Shown one piece after another: positions 3,013-11,022 of a DNA stretch of 11,302 nucleotides. This DNA is from Armatimonadota bacterium. GTDB lineage: Bacteria > Armatimonadota > Armatimonadia > Armatimonadales > Armatimonadaceae. Below the pieces are notes generated by a model, which saw nothing but the letters and a program-made list of their open reading frames with translations, did not search any database and was not told the origin of the DNA. The stretch spans positions 1 through 11,302 of the forward strand of contig JAYUUO010000167.1 in NCBI GenBank assembly GCA_043754515.1, in the 5' to 3' direction. The stretch's first letter is position 1; each line of letters begins with the position of its first letter. The position numbers and the translations under genes are program-made.

Positions 3013-3089
3013 CCGCGAAGCGTCAGTCGCGACGCGGGGCGCGGGAATCAGTTCGGCGCGTCGTGCGTATAAGTAGAAAGCGTCTCGCT

Positions 3090-4499
3090 ATGAAAAAAAT
3101 CCCATTCCTTTCCTCGTCACATCATCGGCATCTCGCGGTCGCTGCGTTCGGTGTCGCCTGGCTCGGCGTCTCCGCCGCGCCGGGTGCGTTTGCTCAAACC
3201 GGCACCGCGCCCGTTACCTCACCGCAAGTGACGCCGCCACCCGTAGCGACGTCGCCGGGTCAGGCGACGACGCCAAACGCCGCGAAGAAAGACAAAGCCG
3301 CGAAGCCGCCTGCCGAGGATTCCGAAGTCAAGCTAGGCCGCGAGACGCACGAGGACTTGCTCCGCTCCGGCTTGAAACTGGTGAAAGATCCCGCCGTCCT
3401 CGCCCGCGTCGAAGCCATCGGCAAAAAGGTCGCGGCAATCGCGAACGCCGAAGCGGTTCCCGCGACGTACGGTTCGTCGAAGCATGTACCGTACGAGTAC
3501 CGCTTCTTCGTGGTGGACGACGACGACGTGAACGCGTTCTCGCTACCCGGCGGCTACATCTACGTTAATAAAGGGATTTTGCGGTACGCGCAGTCGGACG
3601 ACGAACTCGCCGCCGTCATAGGGCACGAGATAACGCACGCGATGCACCATCACGTCGCTAAACTGCAACACGAGCAGAGCCGCCTAAATACGCAGATGGC
3701 ACTGGGTCTGCTCGCCGCGCTGGTCGCCCGCGTCCCGACTGCTGATACCATGAACCTGATGACCGGCTTCCAGTTGATCGCCCTACAGAAGGTGAACGGG
3801 TTCGGGCAGGATGCCGAGCGGGACGCGGACCACGGAGGAGTGATCCTGACGCAAAAGGCGGGGTACAACCCGGTCGGCTCACTGACTTTCATGGAGCGGC
3901 TGGGACGCGACCAGAAGCAACGCCCCGACGTCGAACTCGGCATCTTCCGCACGCACCCGCCGGAGAAGGAGCGGGCGACACTGATCAAGTCCGAGATCGT
4001 CGGGATGGGCTTGCCGATCAACCGCCGCGAGGTGACTAACACCCTGCGCGTCCAGGTGCGTTCCGTGGCGATCACGAAGGAACCGGTAGTAGCCGCTGGC
4101 GCGGCGAGCACTTCGTCCGTCACTAAGGTGTCGCCAGTCGCGGTCGCCGCTACTCCAGATGTCGCGAAAGGGTCCGCGCCGCAACCGATCGGCGGGCTGA
4201 GCGAGGTGCTACTCGACGGCAAATTGCTATACCGCACGCCGGTCGCGGATCGCGCGAAGCAGGTGTCCGACTCACTCAACAAACTTCTCGATCAGAACAT
4301 ACAAATATATGACCTGACACGGCGCGGCGCGACTATTTATGCGCACGGCGAGCCGGTACTCGCGGTGCGGAGCGACGACATGAGCGCGTACCCCGCCTCC
4401 GCGAGTGGCGGGTTGTCGCCCGAAGCCGCCGCCGACACCGCGTTCAAGACGCTACGAAATGCCTTGTACCGGCACCTGCTTAACGGGAACGTATACTAG
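3090..4499 (+). CDS. M48-family zinc metalloprotease (BepA/LoiP-like catalytic domain), exported, with C-terminal accessory domain
   Basis: Likely start ATG 3090 (MKKIPF...AFA|Q signal peptide), followed by a Pro/Thr linker. Motifs VNAFSLPGGYIYV, ELAAVIGHEITH (HExxH), ERDAD (third ligand Glu), AGYNP and RTHP. Confidence 0.92.
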   Translation: MKKIPFLSSSHHRHLAVAAFGVAWLGVSAAPGAFAQTGTAPVTSPQVTPPPVATSPGQATTPNAAKKDKAAKPPAEDSEVKLGRETHEDLLRSGLKLVKDPAVLARVEAIGKKVAAIANAEAVPATYGSSKHVPYEYRFFVVDDDDVNAFSLPGGYIYVNKGILRYAQSDDELAAVIGHEITHAMHHHVAKLQHEQSRLNTQMALGLLAALVARVPTADTMNLMTGFQLIALQKVNGFGQDAERDADHGGVILTQKAGYNPVGSLTFMERLGRDQKQRPDVELGIFRTHPPEKERATLIKSEIVGMGLPINRREVTNTLRVQVRSVAITKEPVVAAGAASTSSVTKVSPVAVAATPDVAKGSAPQPIGGLSEVLLDGKLLYRTPVADRAKQVSDSLNKLLDQNIQIYDLTRRGATIYAHGEPVLAVRSDDMSAYPASASGGLSPEAAADTAFKTLRNALYRHLLNGNVY

Positions 4500-4510
4500 A
4501 ATCGGAAATT

Positions 4511-4584
4511 GGTCTTTACCCGCCGTGGCGCGCAAACGTCGCGACGGGTACAATGGGAGCCGTCTCCCACAACACTTTAAGACC
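4511..4584 (+). promoter_or_regulatory. Intergenic inverted repeats with a candidate -10 (TACAAT 4549-4554) upstream of the leader ORF
   Basis: 14-position stem 4517-4530/4537-4550 (1 mismatch, 2 G-U). Perfect TGGGAG-ccgt-CTCCCA at 4554-4569. GGTCTT 4511-4516 is complementary to AAGACC 4579-4584. Confidence 0.5.
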
Positions 4585-4600
4585 TGAACCCATATTCGTG

Positions 4601-4954
4601 ATGATTACCCGACTCCCGACACAAACGTGCCAACGCCGCCTCGCGGCGTTCGTATCGCTTCTGTTCGCGTTCCTGGTGATCGGGACCACGGTCATGCCGC
4701 ATTTTCACGGCGGTAAAGCACCCGAATCGGTCGCCGCCGTCCATACGGATAGGCATCAATTGTCCGTTTCCGCCGCCGGTTGTCCGCTTTGTGATTGGCT
4801 AGCGTCGTCGTATGTCCCTGCGGCAACCCCGCTCCCGCTCCGAGTCGTGCCGGAACTCCGCGCCGCGCGGGCGACGCCGCTCGCTGCGAGTCATCAGTTC
4901 GGACTCGCCGAACCCGTTCACTCGCCCCAGCGCGGCCCCCCTTCGCTCGCCTGA
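4601..4954 (+). CDS. DUF2946-like (CruR/CutF-type) small protein; candidate metal-responsive leader/arrest peptide
   Basis: About 117 aa from ATG 4601 (alternatives GTG 4598 and ATG 4553). Basic N-terminus, hydrophobic helix LAAFVSLLFAFLVIGTTV, HFH (4700-4708), CPLC (4781-4792), Pro/Ala linker, RGPP (4931-4942) 3 codons before the stop. This is the DUF2946 architecture. Confidence 0.8.
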   Translation: MITRLPTQTCQRRLAAFVSLLFAFLVIGTTVMPHFHGGKAPESVAAVHTDRHQLSVSAAGCPLCDWLASSYVPAATPLPLRVVPELRAARATPLAASHQFGLAEPVHSPQRGPPSLA

Positions 4955-5098
4955 TCTGTCTTCTGTTGTACCCGCGTACTCTGACGCCGCTCGCGCCACT
5001 TACGCTACCCGCCTCGCGCCGACCGGTTTGCGCCGAACCGCCGCGTCCGTCCGGGTTTTTGTCCGTGCCTTCTTTACCGATTATCAGGGAGTTGAACC

Positions 5099-5731
5099 GT
5101 GAATACTATATTGACCTTTATCAAGAACGGCGGGGTGATGATGTACCCGCTGATCGTCTGCTCGGTCGGCCTTTTCGCCATCATCATCGAGCGCGCCATT
5201 TCGCTCCGCCGCGCCAGCGTGGACGGCGACGTGCTACTGGACGCGGTCCGCGACAGCTACAAAGGCGCAGACCCCAAAGTGACCTCGTCCGCTGACGCGA
5301 TCCGCGCCATTGAGGGATACCGCGCCCCGATCGCCCGCATGTTCGCGCGGGGTCTCAAGAACGCGCACCGCGACGCCGATGCGATAGAGATGGCGATGGA
5401 GCAGGAAGCCGCGAACGATCTGCCCAGCATTGAGGCGTACCTGCCTGTATTACGCACTATTATCAACATCGCGCCTCTCCTCGGCCTGCTCGGTACTATC
5501 GCCGGTATGATCTCGTCCTTTCGATCGGCGGCGACCTCGGGACTCTCCAACCCGACCCAGATTCTAGGCGGTATTTCGGAGGCGTTGATCTCCACCGCGA
5601 CCGGGATCACGCTCGCCGTGGTCGGCTTCGTCTTCTACAACTATTTCACGAACCTGACGCGCAAGATGACCGCCGACATGGAGTATTACGGCGCAGAACT
5701 GGTGAATTTCCTGACCGGACGCGTGGACTAA
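5099..5731 (+). CDS. exbB: MotA/TolQ/ExbB proton channel protein
   Basis: GGVMMYPLIVCS...IIIER, APLLGLLGTIAGMISSF, GISEALISTATG. AGGGAG SD at 5086-5091 before the GTG. Adjacent to exbD and tonB. Confidence 0.95.
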   Translation: MNTILTFIKNGGVMMYPLIVCSVGLFAIIIERAISLRRASVDGDVLLDAVRDSYKGADPKVTSSADAIRAIEGYRAPIARMFARGLKNAHRDADAIEMAMEQEAANDLPSIEAYLPVLRTIINIAPLLGLLGTIAGMISSFRSAATSGLSNPTQILGGISEALISTATGITLAVVGFVFYNYFTNLTRKMTADMEYYGAELVNFLTGRVD

Positions 5732-5759
5732 CCAGGGCCTCTTACAAGGAGATAAACCG

Positions 5760-6170
5760 ATGCGAAAACGTATGCGACTCGGTCGCCGCGTCCCGTCCGA
5801 AGAGGCGGAGATCGTGGTCATCCCGATGATTGACGTGATGATGTTTTTACTGTTCTTTTTCATGGTGTCGTCGCTCGCGATGGTGGTGCAGAGCGGCTTG
5901 CCGGTGAACCTGCCCAAGGCGTCTACCTCAAACCAGCACTCGTCGCAGAACATCACGATCACTATGATGCGCGACAACCGGATCTTTCTGAATACGACCG
6001 CGACCACGGTTGACAAACTCGAAGCCGGTCTGCGGGCGTTGAAGGTCGGGCCCGACAATCTGGTGATCATCAACGCCGACGCGAAGGTCGAGCATGGCGT
6101 GGTGGTCGAGGGGATGGATCAGGCGCGCAAAGCCGGGGTCACCCGCTTCGCCATCGCGACCACGAAATAG
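5760..6170 (+). CDS. exbD: Biopolymer transporter ExbD/TolR
   Basis: IPMIDVMMFLLFFFMV (conserved TM Asp), VNLPKA, VIINADAKVEHGVVVEGMDQARKAG. AAGGAG SD upstream. Confidence 0.95.
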   Translation: MRKRMRLGRRVPSEEAEIVVIPMIDVMMFLLFFFMVSSLAMVVQSGLPVNLPKASTSNQHSSQNITITMMRDNRIFLNTTATTVDKLEAGLRALKVGPDNLVIINADAKVEHGVVVEGMDQARKAGVTRFAIATTK

Positions 6171-6186
6171 AAGGAGCCAACGTATC

Positions 6187-7026
6187 ATGTCCATTCCCGA
6201 TGTGCCCAAGACACCGGCACCGCGTCGGCGACGGCGCGGGCAGAGCAACCCGCTCTTGCCGCGAATCATCGGCGTCGCAGTGCTGATTCACCTGATCGGA
6301 TTGCCGATACTGGCGCATTTCGGCGCGTTCAAGAAGGTGCAACAACAGTTCCTGGAAACGAAACTGGTTACGTTGCCTCCGCCCGAAAAGCCGAAAGCCG
6401 AACCGAAAACAGAAAAGAAGGCCCAGCCGAAAGTCGTCCGCCACCCGGAGTCGAAAGCCATCCATTCACACGCACCCGCGTCCACGCGCTCCGCGCTCGC
6501 CCAGCCGAAAGTGGTCGCGGCGGCGGGCAGTCCCGGCGCGGGCGGGGATGGCGGCCCGACCGTTGACCCGAACGGGACCGGGGTAGCGGGGCAGTTACCT
6601 GGTAATGCCACGACGCCCGCGCCCGCGTCTACACCGACACCGGCACCGGACGCCGATCCATCTACCCCGCTTCCGATGGTGCCTTCGCTGACACCGGAGC
6701 CGACACTGACGCCGCGACCGGTGCCTACTCCCACCCCGGTACCCAAACTGCCCACCTTCACCGAGGCGACACCGATAGACGAGATCAAGCCGGTGATCCC
6801 CGACGCGCTCCGGTCCGACGCGCTCGACGCCACCATGGTGATCGCGTTCACGGTGGGCGCGGACGGCGTGCCGACGAGCGTGCGAATTGCGGAATCGTCG
6901 TCCACTCCCGAACTTAATGATCTCGGGCTTAAAACGGCGCGGCAATGGCGGTTCAAACCCGCGACCCGCGATGGCGAGCCGGTCGAGAGCATCGTCCGCC
7001 TGCACATCGAGTTTCAAGTCAACTAA
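6187..7026 (+). CDS. tonB: Energy transducer TonB
   Basis: Start revised to ATG 6187 (AAGGAG SD upstream; 279 aa). N-terminal TM with His (AVLIH), Lys/Pro- and Pro/Thr-rich linker, TonB C-domain (FTVGADGVPTSVRIAESS...ARQWRFKPATRDGEPV...IEF). Confidence 0.92.
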   Translation: MSIPDVPKTPAPRRRRRGQSNPLLPRIIGVAVLIHLIGLPILAHFGAFKKVQQQFLETKLVTLPPPEKPKAEPKTEKKAQPKVVRHPESKAIHSHAPASTRSALAQPKVVAAAGSPGAGGDGGPTVDPNGTGVAGQLPGNATTPAPASTPTPAPDADPSTPLPMVPSLTPEPTLTPRPVPTPTPVPKLPTFTEATPIDEIKPVIPDALRSDALDATMVIAFTVGADGVPTSVRIAESSSTPELNDLGLKTARQWRFKPATRDGEPVESIVRLHIEFQVN

Positions 7027-7028
7027 GC

Positions 7029-9686
7029 ATGAATAAAAATATCGTCCTACTATCGCTACCGGTGATCGCCGCGTCCGCGCCGGCCTCGCTCGCCGCCACG
7101 CCCATTGCGTCCGCGTCGCTCCCATCCGTGTCCGCCGCGCCGCGCCCCATCCGGTTCGTGGTGATTGATCCGCGCACGCGTCTCCTGGTTGCCGGAGCGT
7201 GGGTGCGCGTGGAACCGGCGGGACGAAACGCGGCGGGCGGGGGGGGGAAGTCGCTCCCCGCCGTCGTTACGCTACGTACCAGTGCCGGGGATCATGGGGC
7301 GATCACGCCTGCGTTCGATGCCGAGGGTTGGGTTGCGCGGAGTGGCATGACGGGGGCCGACACAACCGCTGTCCCGAGGGGATTGCCGGTAACGAAGGGC
7401 GTTGCGCCGCGAACCGTGACTTTAATTCTGGGCACGAGCGTCGTTCTTCCCGCGAATGTGGCAACCGTAGCCGCGCCGCAAAACGGTGCGAATCGTCCCG
7501 CGACCCCCACCGGGAGTGGCAAGCCGCCCGTGCGCGACATCTATATCAAGGTCACCGCGACCCGCGTCCCGCTCCGCTCCGGCACCACCGCCGCCGGAAC
7601 GACGCGCACGAACCAGCAACTCAGCACGTTCGTGAACCGGGCGGGGAACGACACTGGGGCACTCACGCGCGGCCAGTCTGGCGTCGCGTCCGACTCGAAC
7701 GGACAACAGCACGTGCGCGGCGAACACGCCGACATCTCGTTCGTGATTGACGGCGTGCCGCTCCCCGACACGCTTTCCGGGCGGCAAGGCTCGGTCGTAG
7801 TGGCGTCCACGATCCAGAGTCTCGACATCCTGACCGGGGGATTCCCCGCCGAGTTCGGCGGTCAGACCGCCGCCGTACTGGATGTGCAGACCCTGCCCGG
7901 TGCGCGAAATCCGAGCGTGGATCTGAACCTGCAAGGCGGGAACTACAACGCCTACAACGCGGATCTGACCGCCTCGGGTCCGCTGGGTCTTCAGTCCAGC
8001 TACGTGATCAACGTCAGCGACAACCGCAGCGACAACGCCATCGAGCCGCAACAGCCGGACAAGCAGACCGCGCACAATTCCGGTCAGAACCAGAGCTACT
8101 TCGCCAAGTTCCGGACCGCGCCGCGACTCGGCGACGCGTTCACGCTCACGCTCAGTCACGCGCCGAGCCACCTCGACCTGTCGAACCGAACGGGACTCGG
8201 CGCGCGCTTCGCAAACGCTGGGCAGGGGTACGGTTTCCTCGGCCAGCGCAACGCCGATGGGACGCGCCCCGACGCACCCGGAGGCGACACGCCCGTGCCG
8301 CCAGGTGGCGATCCGCTCCCGCTCGCGTCGCAACAGGACGACGGGCAGGCGATCTACTCGGACGAGGTGAACGAGTTCATCACCGCGTCCTACCAGCACG
8401 CGTTCAGCACCCGCGACACCGGCGAACTCGCGGGCGTGGTGCTCCACTCCGGGCAGAACGTCCGCAATCACAGCCCCGCCATCAACCTCGACGCCCTGCC
8501 GCCGGACAACTCCATAGAGTACAACCCCGAGGCGAAGCGCGACGTCTACCATTACCAGGTGAGCGGCTACCTGAGTGTGCGGCGGGGGCGGCACCGTGTC
8601 AAGGGCGGCTTTCTGAACGACGAGCAGAGCGGCGACGAGTCGTATCGCATTATCCCCGCGAGCCAACTGGCCCTGAACGAACTCGCGGCACTCGCGCCCA
8701 ATATCGCGCCGCCCGGCACACCGGGGGACGCGAAGGACATAAACAACAACCCTGTATTCGCCATCACACCGGGCGCGGCGTCGCCGACACTGACCGTCCA
8801 CCGCTCTGGCTATTACCGCGCTGCTTACCTGCAAGACACCTGGCAATTGTCGAAGCGGTTCGCGGTGAACTACGGCGTGCGCTACGACGCGTTCTCGCAG
8901 AAGCAAAACCTCGGCCAGCCCTCCGTGGATAAGTCCGAGTTTTCGCCGCGTCTGAACCTGTCGTATGGCCTGCCCGGCGCGACCCTGTTCCGGGCGTCGG
9001 CGAACCACCTTTTTAACATCCCGCCGCTCGCGCAGGGCGCCGTGGTCGGCCAGCCGATCCAGCCGGAGAGCCTGAACCAGTATGACGCGAGCGTCGAGCA
9101 ACACGTCGCCCCCGGACAGACAGCTAAGGTCGCGTATTACTACAAGGAGATCAAGAATCAGGTGGACACCGGCTTATTGATCCCCGGAAGCCAGATCGGG
9201 CTATACTCTGCGGTCAACTTCCAGTTCGGCGGTGTTCACGGCGTGGAACTGTCGTATGAAGTGTCACCGCCGCGCGGGGTCGGGCTGGACGGCTATGTCA
9301 ACTACTCGTACTCGATAGCGAAGCCGAACGGCGTGGATAACACCGGCGCGAAGGTATCGCTCTTCAACGACCACGATCAGCGGCACACGCTCGGCGCGGG
9401 GCTTGCCTACCTGTTCCGTGGCGGGGCGTCGGCGGCTGTCACGCTGAACTACGGGAGCGGGCTGGCGAGTAGCCCGATTCCGCCGAGTTCGGAGCGCGTT
9501 CCACGCTCCGAGGTGGACCTGCACCTGACGTCGGGCAAGAAGCTGTTCGGCGGCCGGGGCGGGTTCGGCCTGGACGTCGCGAACCTGTTCGACTCGCGGG
9601 ATGTGATCAACTTCCAGTCGGCGTTCAGCGGCACGCGGTTCCAGCAAGGGCGTCGGATTCTCGGGTCGGCGTTCCTGACGTTCTAG
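7029..9686 (+). CDS. TonB-dependent outer-membrane receptor
   Basis: Start revised to ATG 7029, 2 nt after the tonB stop (885 aa). Signal-peptide-like N-terminus, TonB-box-like IKVTA (7545-7559), plug (HVRGEH...IDGVP...ILTGGFPAEFGG), barrel motifs AAYLQDTW, NYGVRYD, SPRLNLSY, PE, NLFD, and a C-terminal Phe. Confidence 0.95.
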   Translation: MNKNIVLLSLPVIAASAPASLAATPIASASLPSVSAAPRPIRFVVIDPRTRLLVAGAWVRVEPAGRNAAGGGGKSLPAVVTLRTSAGDHGAITPAFDAEGWVARSGMTGADTTAVPRGLPVTKGVAPRTVTLILGTSVVLPANVATVAAPQNGANRPATPTGSGKPPVRDIYIKVTATRVPLRSGTTAAGTTRTNQQLSTFVNRAGNDTGALTRGQSGVASDSNGQQHVRGEHADISFVIDGVPLPDTLSGRQGSVVVASTIQSLDILTGGFPAEFGGQTAAVLDVQTLPGARNPSVDLNLQGGNYNAYNADLTASGPLGLQSSYVINVSDNRSDNAIEPQQPDKQTAHNSGQNQSYFAKFRTAPRLGDAFTLTLSHAPSHLDLSNRTGLGARFANAGQGYGFLGQRNADGTRPDAPGGDTPVPPGGDPLPLASQQDDGQAIYSDEVNEFITASYQHAFSTRDTGELAGVVLHSGQNVRNHSPAINLDALPPDNSIEYNPEAKRDVYHYQVSGYLSVRRGRHRVKGGFLNDEQSGDESYRIIPASQLALNELAALAPNIAPPGTPGDAKDINNNPVFAITPGAASPTLTVHRSGYYRAAYLQDTWQLSKRFAVNYGVRYDAFSQKQNLGQPSVDKSEFSPRLNLSYGLPGATLFRASANHLFNIPPLAQGAVVGQPIQPESLNQYDASVEQHVAPGQTAKVAYYYKEIKNQVDTGLLIPGSQIGLYSAVNFQFGGVHGVELSYEVSPPRGVGLDGYVNYSYSIAKPNGVDNTGAKVSLFNDHDQRHTLGAGLAYLFRGGASAAVTLNYGSGLASSPIPPSSERVPRSEVDLHLTSGKKLFGGRGGFGLDVANLFDSRDVINFQSAFSGTRFQQGRRILGSAFLTF
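7239..7247 (+). repeat. G9 homopolymer tract within the 5' part of the receptor gene
   Basis: GGC GGG GGG GGG AAG, encoding GGGGK. Confidence 0.9.
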
Positions 9687-9702: not shown

Positions 9703-11022
9703 GTGACCAACCGCCTGCCCATCTTTCGTAGCTACATTTTCTATAGTCTGCGGGGTGGCTTCATCGTCCGCCCTCTGATTATCACGCTGGTACTCGGCGC
9801 GTTGGGGGCGACGCTCACCGTGCTCGAATCCCTCTACCCCTGGATGAGCCGGTGGGTGCCCCGCCTGCTGTTCCCCTACCCGCACGACCCGCAGGTAGGC
9901 CAGACCATCCTGAGCGGGATAGCGACTTCGATGATGACCGTGGTCTCCATCGTTTTCGCCATCCTGTTGATGACGCTCACGCTCGCTTCAATGCAATACT
10001 CGCCGCGCATCCTGGTCGCGTTCGCCCGCGACCGCGTGACGCAACAGACGCTCGGCATCTTCCTCGGCACGTTCTCGTACTGCCTCGCCGCCCTGCCCGC
10101 CGCGCGTAGCATCCCACATCCCACCGCGCCCGTGTTTACCATAGTCGGCGCGATGGTGCTCGCCCTGTGTTGCGTCGCCTGGCTCCTCTTCTTCATTCAG
10201 CACATCTCGGAGGCGATCAGCGTCAACCAGATCGTGCATAACATCGCAACCGAGACCGAACTGGTCATTGACGAGATCATGCCAAGCCCGTCCCGGCGCA
10301 GTCTCGTTCCCTCCATGGAACTGCCCGCCCCGGACTCGGACGAGGCTACCGTTCTGAGCCGGGTATCCGGCTACGTCCGCTTCATCGAAAGCCGAGAGAT
10401 GGTCGCGCTCGCGAAGGCGAACGGCGTGCGCGTGCGGGTTCTGCGCCGCACCGGACATTTCGTGCCGGAGGGCGTCGCGCTACTCGCCGCGCGCCGCGCG
10501 GAGAAACTCACGCCCGCGCTCGCCGCCGCCTTCCACTCGCTGTTCGACATCGGGCCGACGCGCACTCTGCAACAGGACATCGAGTTCGGGATACTGATGA
10601 TCGTGGACATCGCGCTCAAGGCGATTTCACCCGCCGTGAATGACCCTAGCACCGCGATCAGTTGCGTTGACCAGTTGAGCCGGATACTGATCCGCTTCGC
10701 CGCGCGCGAACCGCCGCCGACGGTGATCGAAGACCCGCCCGGCGTGCCGCGTGTTAGTATTCCCTGGCTCGACTTCGACCGTCTCGTCGAGTCGGCGTTC
10801 GAGCAGATACGGATGTACGCGAAGAATGATGTGGCCGTTAATCTGCGGATGTTGCGTGCGCTGTCCGACGTCGCCTCGACCCTCCCGAATGCCGGGTCGC
10901 GCGAGAGTCTTGTCGCCATGGGGCGCCGCATCGTCGCGGGCGGCGCGGAAGTACTCGGAGACGCCGAAATGGTCGAGATGCGTAGTCGTCTCGTTGCGCT
11001 AGAAGGCGTCGCGGCTTCTTGA
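9703..11022 (+). CDS. DUF2254-family predicted membrane protein
   Basis: About 4 N-terminal TM helices. Motifs LTLASMQYSPRIL, LGIFLGTFSY, SGYVRFI, RTLQQDIEFG..IVDIALKAISPAVNDPSTA..CVDQL. Confidence 0.88.
   Translation: MTNRLPIFRSYIFYSLRGGFIVRPLIITLVLGALGATLTVLESLYPWMSRWVPRLLFPYPHDPQVGQTILSGIATSMMTVVSIVFAILLMTLTLASMQYSPRILVAFARDRVTQQTLGIFLGTFSYCLAALPAARSIPHPTAPVFTIVGAMVLALCCVAWLLFFIQHISEAISVNQIVHNIATETELVIDEIMPSPSRRSLVPSMELPAPDSDEATVLSRVSGYVRFIESREMVALAKANGVRVRVLRRTGHFVPEGVALLAARRAEKLTPALAAAFHSLFDIGPTRTLQQDIEFGILMIVDIALKAISPAVNDPSTAISCVDQLSRILIRFAAREPPPTVIEDPPGVPRVSIPWLDFDRLVESAFEQIRMYAKNDVAVNLRMLRALSDVASTLPNAGSRESLVAMGRRIVAGGAEVLGDAEMVEMRSRLVALEGVAAS

Follow-up and report, generated by a model that had tools for sequence, protein, structure and literature searches.

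A putative DUF2946-like arrest leader ahead of a Ton motor and receptor operon in Armatimonadota, with zinc as the probable ligand

The stretch of DNA analyzed here (the window, 11,302 nucleotides (nt)) originates from an Armatimonadota bacterium and carries on its forward strand a short open reading frame (ORF), the leader, in front of a complete Ton system. The leader (4601..4954) encodes 117 amino acids (aa) and is, on the basis of the ORF and of profile scores, a DUF2946-like candidate for an arrest peptide; translation could alternatively begin at an in-frame ATG (4553) or at a GTG (4598). Behind basic residues lies a hydrophobic helix (residues 13-31; 4637..4693), a possible signal or membrane anchor; judged by hydropathy only, the top sampled 19-residue window begins at residue 13 with a mean of 2.05. 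It is followed by HxH (residues 34-36; 4700..4708), by CPLC (residues 61-64; 4781-4792) as part of a CPLC-D-W block (4781..4798), and by a candidate RGPP arrest motif (residues 111-114; 4931..4942) that ends three residues ahead of the stop codon. The distance from CxxC to RGPP is exactly 46 residues, and 144 nt separate the leader stop from the start of exbB. Downstream and on the same strand lie exbB (5099..5731; PF01618, 1.3e-30) with the Shine-Dalgarno sequence AGGGAG (5086..5091), exbD (5760..6170; PF02472, 2.4e-29), tonB (6187..7026; PF03544 (TonB_C), 4.9e-14), and a TonB-dependent receptor gene (7029..9686; PF00593 barrel, 2.7e-26), with gaps of 28, 16, and 2 nt if 6187 and 7029 are chosen as starts. 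A preliminary description of this DNA had given the same leader anatomy, four tightly packed Ton genes and a probably non-proteobacterial origin; the anatomy is exact throughout, Pfam confirms the four genes, and the lineage is Armatimonadota.

Conservation within the leader family is concentrated on these motifs. In 30 aligned leaders, His34, Cys61, Cys64, Arg111, Pro113, and Pro114 are invariant, His36 and Trp66 are present in at least 90% of the rows, the hydrophobic helix is retained, and the positions outside the motifs are just 16-46% identical. HxH and CPLC possibly form a His2Cys2 metal site. A six-frame translation of the genome of the window yielded 117 ORF ends with R[AG]PP no more than 15 residues from the stop, 4 of which have a CxxC up to 75 residues upstream, and a spacing of 43-48 residues occurs in this leader only.

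The leader had been suggested to be an arrest-type leader of the CruR/DUF2946 kind, and the motifs, their spacing, and profile homology are consistent with this. With regard to the hidden Markov model of DUF2946 (PF11162), the expectation held at the level of family homology but not for the ORF itself, which scored 12.4 bits (E=0.28) and thus remained under the gathering cut-off of 23.7. PF11162 matches 24 of the 30 aligned leaders at E<=1 (best 2.8e-6). A leader profile built without the row of the window, in which close relatives were kept, scored the ORF of the window at 61 bits and recovered all four over-cut-off PF11162 loci that were checked (L174, L176, L178, and L180) as well as the annotated DUF2946 protein WP_247368164.1 (28.1 bits). 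The full search with the leader profile gave 582 cluster representatives at E<=0.001, and 142 of 150 examined matches have R[AGS]PP with CxxC or CxxH 43-47 residues ahead. A word-indexed profile search with the leader family found 5 proteins, the leader as single-sequence query matched only itself, and an NCBIfam scan of the leader matched no family. Sequence comparison thus presents the leader as DUF2946-like, with family-level homology to PF11162, and not as a formal Pfam member. Two variant forms were seen in addition. A second leader copy in the genome of the window (G000:C88:7110-7473, equal to L253:4111-4474) heads a pilin-like gene and has its frame broken at CxxC; this copy could be a pseudogene, or the assembly could be wrong here. 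L046 (3471-4016, 1865-3099) and L164 contain a long-spacer variant (HHH...CxxCxxC, 94-136 residues to RAPP) behind a csoR gene, and in L046 two further tandem long-spacer leaders head a divergent second receptor-exbBD-ZIP cluster.

For the comparison with relatives, loci were gathered by similarity to ExbB or the receptor and not by the leader. Upon exclusion of 11 loci lacking the exbB 5' end and of the outgroup L120, 85 loci were left, corresponding to 64 non-redundant loci at 95% identity, and leaders with a spacing of 42-48 residues were selected as canonical. A leader is present in 34 of the 64 loci, namely 29 canonical ones (one with RSPP, assigned by hand) and 5 that have a long spacer or are cut by the contig end. 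The order leader-exbB-exbD-tonB-receptor, proposed earlier as a synteny check, is complete in the 9 canonical-leader loci where the fetched DNA reaches the receptor, CxxC and RGPP are conserved, and the two nearest leader-bearing relatives (L125 and L121) both have RGPP and a spacing of 46. The preliminary description had regarded joint control of motor and receptor as peculiar to this order, which did not hold up, since leader-receptor-exbB-exbD(-tonB) occurs as well (L038, L042, L044, L055, L061, and L063, and on a Bradyrhizobium plasmid). By family, the leader profile matched in 31 of 32 genomes of f8, in 27 of 29 of f2, in 8 of 23 from the window's own family, and in none of the 47 genomes of f11 (Fimbriimonadaceae), whereby a long-spacer variant in one f11 genome (G284) was missed by this profile.

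Among the 64 loci, 19 have the site TACCC-N5-GGGTA no farther than 130 nt from exbB, with one mismatch allowed; this pattern was found in 41 of 12600 shuffled windows. The remainder consists of 6 loci with G-tract variants of this operator (pattern fitted by eye), 4 with neither element, and 1 that is too short. Leader and operator were never found together, neither in the 64 loci (0/64) nor within up to 1.1 kb in 45 leader loci (0/45). The loci are kin, so the counts are not independent, and leader and operator states cluster on the tree: an operator state that arose only once is not rejected (AU p=0.547), the quick tree has 3 changes, and in one tree the operator-type L157 is nested among leader loci. 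Pilin-like genes under leader and under operator control fall into separate groups except for one supported mixed group (L280 and five leader-headed genes, SH-aLRT 97). Two of the four loci with neither element have a third palindrome, TGCAA-N5-TTGCA, which is exact in the nearest leaderless relative (L031:3554) and has one mismatch in L171 (790). It is also located ahead of a Fur-family gene that precedes a leader in G008; further positions are L078:4156, L346:13706, L073:6831, and L074:6800. One-mismatch copies exist in two leader loci, and the genome of the window has 2 exact copies compared to 3 for the control. The sequence is a candidate for the box of an Armatimonadota Fur/Zur-family regulator. 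In L147 (3-434), a MerT-like gene (weak Pfam match under the cut-off) is located directly ahead of exbB in place of leader or operator.

This exchange also bears on whether the leader acts at all as a regulatory element. It could be a periplasmic or membrane protein that binds metal in trans, or a relic without regulatory role, and its export signal and metal ligands would agree with a protein function. However, conservation is confined to the metal ligands, RxPP, and the spacing, the leader always stands in front of the operon (gap of 107-448 nt in relatives), and what takes its place is a DNA operator and not another protein, with the two never co-occurring. We therefore regard a trans-acting protein or a relic as very improbable.

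The published systems are cited here from the accessible parts of the respective papers. In CruR a stalled ribosome blocks Rho and copper releases the stall, whereby the export signal is dispensable (PMC9426467); CruR-type arrest at RAPP was shown in vitro, with RGPP giving the most stable arrest (PMC12992588). In CutF the stall is brought about by copper, and it opens a stem that covers the following ribosome-binding site (bioRxiv 10.1101/2025.02.05.636593). In both systems stalling means ON, and the difference is that the metal ends the stall in one and prolongs it in the other. The suggestion that export plus metal binding releases the arrest mixed these two systems, since CruR does without its export signal (PMC9426467), whereas CutF needs it (bioRxiv 10.1101/2025.02.05.636593). 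We consider the chances about even that the leader is a cis-acting arrest peptide of the CruR type, which would switch on Ton motor and receptor under scarcity of a divalent metal, most likely of zinc. Transcription would begin ahead of the leader, and by analogy with CruR and with RAPP/RGPP arrest peptides the ribosome would stall at RGPP, Pro113 then occupying the P site. The stalled ribosome would shield a C-rich tract, so that no Rho termination takes place in the 144-nt spacer and exbB-exbD-tonB-receptor is expressed. With sufficient metal, the nascent HxH/CxxC outside the exit tunnel would bind it, the chain would be pulled free, and Rho would terminate; in some relatives the leader end might in addition pair with the exbB ribosome-binding site.

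For the first step, TACAAT on the forward strand (4549..4554) is by sequence a candidate for the -10 box of the promoter of leader and operon, and -10-like hexamers were seen ahead of 21 of 25 examined leaders, a count that has no chance control. A sigma-70 consensus scan gave no promoter near the leader and did not pick up TACAAT; within the spacer it marked one weak terminator-like site, and its totals were no different from chance. By eye, a GC-rich inverted repeat without a T run is located at 4518-4551 between the stop of an upstream M48 peptidase gene and the candidate -10 box, and many family-f2 loci (L054, L057-L070) have a -10-like hexamer few bases before a possible leader start, a hint of leaderless mRNA.

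The spacer itself is pyrimidine-rich. By composition, the leader end and the spacer contain on the forward strand a C-rich/pyrimidine-rich tract (4880..5030) that is a candidate Rho-utilization site; 150-nt windows there are in the top 0.4-0.7% of the own genome for C over G, and the 70 nt past the leader stop are in the top 0.9% among 1675 stop-flanks of that genome. Among 33 leader loci, 30 have more C than G in the 70 non-coding nt past the stop, with a mean skew of 0.13 and a pyrimidine fraction of 0.63, compared to a stop-flank background, taken from the own genome only (n=1675), of -0.01 +/- 0.11 for skew and 0.49 +/- 0.07 for pyrimidines. The genome also encodes rho. Because of the C-rich tract past the leader stop and the presence of rho, the stall/Rho mechanism of CruR fits best. 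Folding predicted a further element, a weak possible anti-Shine-Dalgarno sequence across the leader stop (4946..4955, forward strand) that pairs with 5083-5091; this pairing of leader end and exbB Shine-Dalgarno sequence appears in two of three fold lengths and is gone in the longest one. Rho is thus the better-supported output, with Shine-Dalgarno occlusion as a possible second layer. An Rfam scan of the window and six loci found no riboswitch or other family, apart from one tRNA.

The pairing is at the same time what a mechanism with the opposite sign would use. As in CutF, metal could prolong the stall and thereby expose the exbB ribosome-binding site, so that the operon would be induced in metal excess. 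In 8 of 33 loci (p<=0.05), the nearest relative L125 (z -5.3) among them, pairing between the stall footprint and the ribosome-binding region of exbB is better than in shuffled sequences. In the window, however, the pairing is no better than in shuffles (p=0.18), and the CutF stall motif is PPP and not RAPP or RGPP. The operator found in the sister loci bears on this sign as well, and the probability of such metal-induced control is given below together with that evidence.

Copper, named in the preliminary description by analogy with CruR, is not the best-supported metal; the gene context points to zinc. The contexts were taken from 59 of 135 leader-profile matches, namely those that had not yet been encountered ahead of exbB or of the receptor, together with one locus of G008 (60 loci), and 104 of the 141 downstream ORFs were scanned. 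The first gene behind the leader is most often an outer-membrane protein gene followed by one for a ZnuA-family ABC binding protein (17 loci), then a TonB receptor (14, including 4 identified by earlier similarity searches) or a pilin-like gene (10, plus one behind a second leader in L339); OEP-HlyD efflux genes (3), other ABC genes (3), HupE/UreJ (2), an unnamed protein only (7), and no called gene (4) make up the rest. The ZnuA-family binding proteins retain three conserved His-bearing motifs, which we take to be of the zinc type. In the 17 loci concerned (L325, L333-L335, L337, L340, L344, L349-L352, L359, L360, and L363-L366), the gene ahead of the ZnuA-family one encodes a protein of 360-550 aa that matches no Pfam family, and one of these outer-membrane partners resembles plug-less receptor-like atlas clusters, one of which is auto-named "zinc-regulated". 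Leaders also head ZnuA-family ABC operons in L256 and L257, and ZIP genes are present within the leader-headed receptor clusters L038 and L252. As an observation apart, leaders head ABC/MacB-type exporters in L348, L354, and L331, followed in L348 and L354 by a SurA-like isomerase.

The receptor gives a related picture. His228, His233, His349, His522, and His782 are conserved (HxRGEH and DHDQ motifs) and the aligned part has no Cys or Met. An alignment-based model is a plug-and-barrel fold (pLDDT 91.2, compared to 29.8 for a single-sequence fold); among the matches listed from the PDB the identity is at most 16%, and the fold names no substrate. Six distant plasmid homologues (28-33% identity) were opened. 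The one from Paraburkholderia has the same motifs and is located with exbB, exbD, and tonB in the neighborhood of zigA, of a Fur-family gene, and of a zinc ABC transporter, and the sequence ahead of it shares ATGATATAACAT with a Caulobacter Zur site (PMC4176598). On a Polymorphobacter plasmid the homologue directly follows nikR, between nikR and merC plus a repressor gene; of the others, one lies behind a DUF2946 gene, no metal context is seen for two, and one lacks annotation. The receptor represents an uncharacterized His-motif class and is a candidate zinc importer. From this association of genes, the metal is probably zinc.

The same mechanism and sign with copper as ligand would agree with the CruR-like CxxC-46-RGPP anatomy, with CsoR-type operators usually being copper sites, and with the Cu(II) importer CrtA, which likewise has conserved His only (PMC12914433). 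cruR operons, however, come with copper-homeostasis families (PMC9426467), and none of CopC, YcnI, PCuAC, Sco, multicopper oxidase, or PepSY was found among the 104 scanned downstream proteins of the 60 leader loci, while the receptor homologue sits in a zigA/Fur-family cluster; copper is accordingly distinctly unlikely. For nickel or cobalt, again with the same mechanism, speak HupE/UreJ behind the leader in 3 loci (L330, L339, and L342), nikR directly ahead of the Polymorphobacter receptor homologue, and the His-only receptor motifs. With 17 ZnuA-family operons to 3 with HupE, and zigA scoring over its zinc-chaperone cut-off, these metals appear improbable.

Several observations weigh against a zinc-starvation system under the leader. 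All ZnuA-family proteins score under the NCBIfam zinc and manganese cut-offs, and proteins of this family also bind Mn or Fe. The genome of the window (92.7% complete) gave no ZnuA-family match, and the queries for zigA, ZIP, and MerC remained without a match as well, so that the zinc link is made via relatives only. Nickel neighbors exist, with HupE behind leaders and nikR by a receptor homologue. OEP-HlyD(-CusA/CzcA-like) efflux genes stand behind 3 of the 60 leaders (L313, L321, and L336) and in L044 (8795-9562), and in Caulobacter the operon czrCBA-zntA for zinc efflux has a DUF2946 gene at its head (PMC4176598). The site that replaces the leader in sister loci is of the CsoR type, which would imply a metal-ON sign, the wrong one for starvation genes, and TACCC-N5-GGGTA also fronts copZ-copA (G434 and G384) and copA (the own genome, G081, and G295). 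The leaders on the efflux operons of L044, L313, L321, and L336 may have the opposite sign.

The operator therefore deserves closer description. TACCC-N5-GGGTA agrees with the Streptomyces CsoR consensus (PMC3902906), and the site in the 19 loci agrees with the CsoR type 2 operator, which is characterized by TAC-N9-GTA with G/C tracts at a promoter and by linkage to a csoR gene. An exact copy is located before the sole csoR gene of the window's own genome, followed by a CopA-type ATPase gene, and the same arrangement is found in G081 and G295; in G250, G324, and L156 csoR is divergent from exbB. The csoR-copA operons of G250 and G290 have an N4-spaced site and a different CsoR paralogue. In G109 and G069 the N5 site is on the zigA promoter (two mismatches in G069) and also before an operon of a pilin-like and a choice-of-anchor M gene; the zigA calls are NF038288 matches with 639.5 and 642.9 bits (cut-off 600). 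Both genomes are 99-100% complete and contain one csoR each, beside zigA, with no Fur-family match. MerC-like genes carry the operator in G324, G290, G412, and G257. Five further genomes of the operator type gave no zigA, no operator was seen before copA in the fetched DNA of G069, G412, and G324, and the N5 site fronts a CusA/CzcA-type efflux operon in G433, with others before unrelated genes or inside genes. Because genome-wide one-mismatch counts were not above the reversed control in four of five genomes, only the position of the operator before specific genes is taken as evidence. Paired csoR-like genes, one per pair without the first metal-binding Cys, were noted at L140:6455-7059 and L141:171-963.

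Metal-induced control of the leader operon, as in CutF, would match the normal sign of this operator, which fits the Streptomyces consensus (PMC3902906) and fronts csoR-copA in the window's own genome. Described members of the CsoR family leave DNA upon inducer binding (PMC11672702), and Tyr-Cys-His-Cys is retained in most of the CsoR proteins encoded next to exbB or zigA, the second-shell Tyr reportedly being a predictor of Cu(I) sensing (PMC4235346); the ligand fingerprint of CsoR does not, however, predict the metal. A few loci have efflux RND genes behind leader or operator. Against this stand the starvation-type promoters that carry the same operator (zigA, MerC-like genes, and the choice-of-anchor M operon) and the uptake ABC systems, which are the main genes behind the leader. 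Taken together with the pairing data, induction in metal excess is unlikely. Our initial reading of the exchange as indicating a copper-induced operon was downgraded on account of the zinc-type gene contexts. The sign of the CsoR site could be explained by a paralogue acting as zinc co-repressor in place of Zur, by copper excess inducing zinc uptake, or by a metal-induced operon. In a broader scheme, which we regard as rather doubtful, the zinc-starvation regulon of Armatimonadota would largely do without Zur: in some families a nascent-peptide sensor combining His2Cys2 with a RAPP/RGPP stall would detect zinc, and in Fimbriimonadaceae a CsoR paralogue with inverted allostery would be DNA-bound when zinc-loaded. 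If true, these would be the first zinc-sensing arrest peptide and the first co-repressor of the CsoR/RcnR family.

The genes flanking the Ton operon and leader, for M48 (BepA-like) peptidase (3063-4499) upstream and a DUF2254 membrane protein (9703-11022) 16 nt past the receptor, had no match in any related locus. Farther upstream on the reverse strand (1238-2203), a Uma2-type nuclease ORF has a long N-terminal extension that overlaps the end of an NlpC/P60 gene; it may be two genes or start later.

CruR and CutF, the two studied DUF2946 leaders, are both copper sensors, and DUF2946 has been tied to copper elsewhere, too (10.1101/072470, accessible part). Should the leader described here respond to zinc, metal sensing by ribosome stalling would gain a second metal and would reach a phylum that is not among the lineages which the accessible text of the CruR survey names. 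What is new here is the zinc link and the exchange of leader and repressor site. The alternation of one operon between leader, CsoR-type operator, and Fur-family-like box offers natural controls for ligand and sign, and raises the question of whether the CsoR paralogue is DNA-bound with or without metal. With respect to the gene order, the main text of the CruR paper, as far as accessible, mentions neither ExbB nor ExbD (PMC9426467); cruR is first in more than 40% of crtA operons and ExbBD/TonB genes are present in some, the order not being given in the text available (PMC12914433). The searched supplements of PMC12992588 contained no ExbB, ExbD, TolQ, Armatimonad, or Chthonomonas. In a literature coverage that leaves most subscription papers outside, nothing was found on zinc, Zur, or TonB-dependent genes of Armatimonadota or on a copper-induced CsoR operator on TonB-dependent genes, and for a CsoR co-repressor only general or off-topic papers were returned.

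Compared with the known systems, the leader is closest in build to CruR of Bordetella pertussis (Bp2923; cruR-crtA(bfrG)-bp2921; PMC9426467, PMC12992588). Both have an export signal, CxxC, a C-terminal R[AG]PP, and a TonB receptor gene downstream, both come first in their operon, with a long spacer and a C-rich tract, and the CxxC-to-motif spacing is 45 in CruR and 46 here. Unlike CruR, the leader lies under the Pfam cut-off, has an additional conserved HxH and Trp as well as RGPP, is followed by exbB-exbD-tonB before a receptor of a different class, has neighbors of the zinc and not the copper type, and occurs in Armatimonadota. CutF, encoded before cutO in Rhodobacter capsulatus, is likewise exported and Cys-containing, and its stall can open structure over a downstream ribosome-binding site. 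It differs by CxxxC and PPP, by dependence on EF-P and secretion, and by being copper-ON, whereas the leader has CxxC and RGPP, with occlusion supported in 8 of 33 loci. ApdA, ApdP, and the "TonB-related" class of upstream ORFs (PMC12992588) are small exported proteins with a C-terminal RGPP upstream of TonB genes, like the leader; ApdA and ApdP, however, monitor protein localization, and the accessible text names no metal and no exbB-first case. The type 2 operator of Streptomyces CsoR (PMC3902906) resembles the site that replaces the leader in having TACCC-N5-GGGTA over the -10 region and csoR often nearby, whereas the site described here fronts, besides copA in other genomes, uptake and starvation genes (exbBD-tonB-receptor, zigA, and MerC-like genes). 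The annotated DUF2946 protein WP_247368164.1 of a Bradyrhizobium plasmid (NZ_CP064685.1), for which no publication was found, shares helix, HxH, CPxC, 46 residues, and RGPP with the leader and heads a receptor-exbB-exbD-tonB operon whose receptor is a distant homologue of that of the window; unlike in the operon described here, the receptor comes first and the motor after it.

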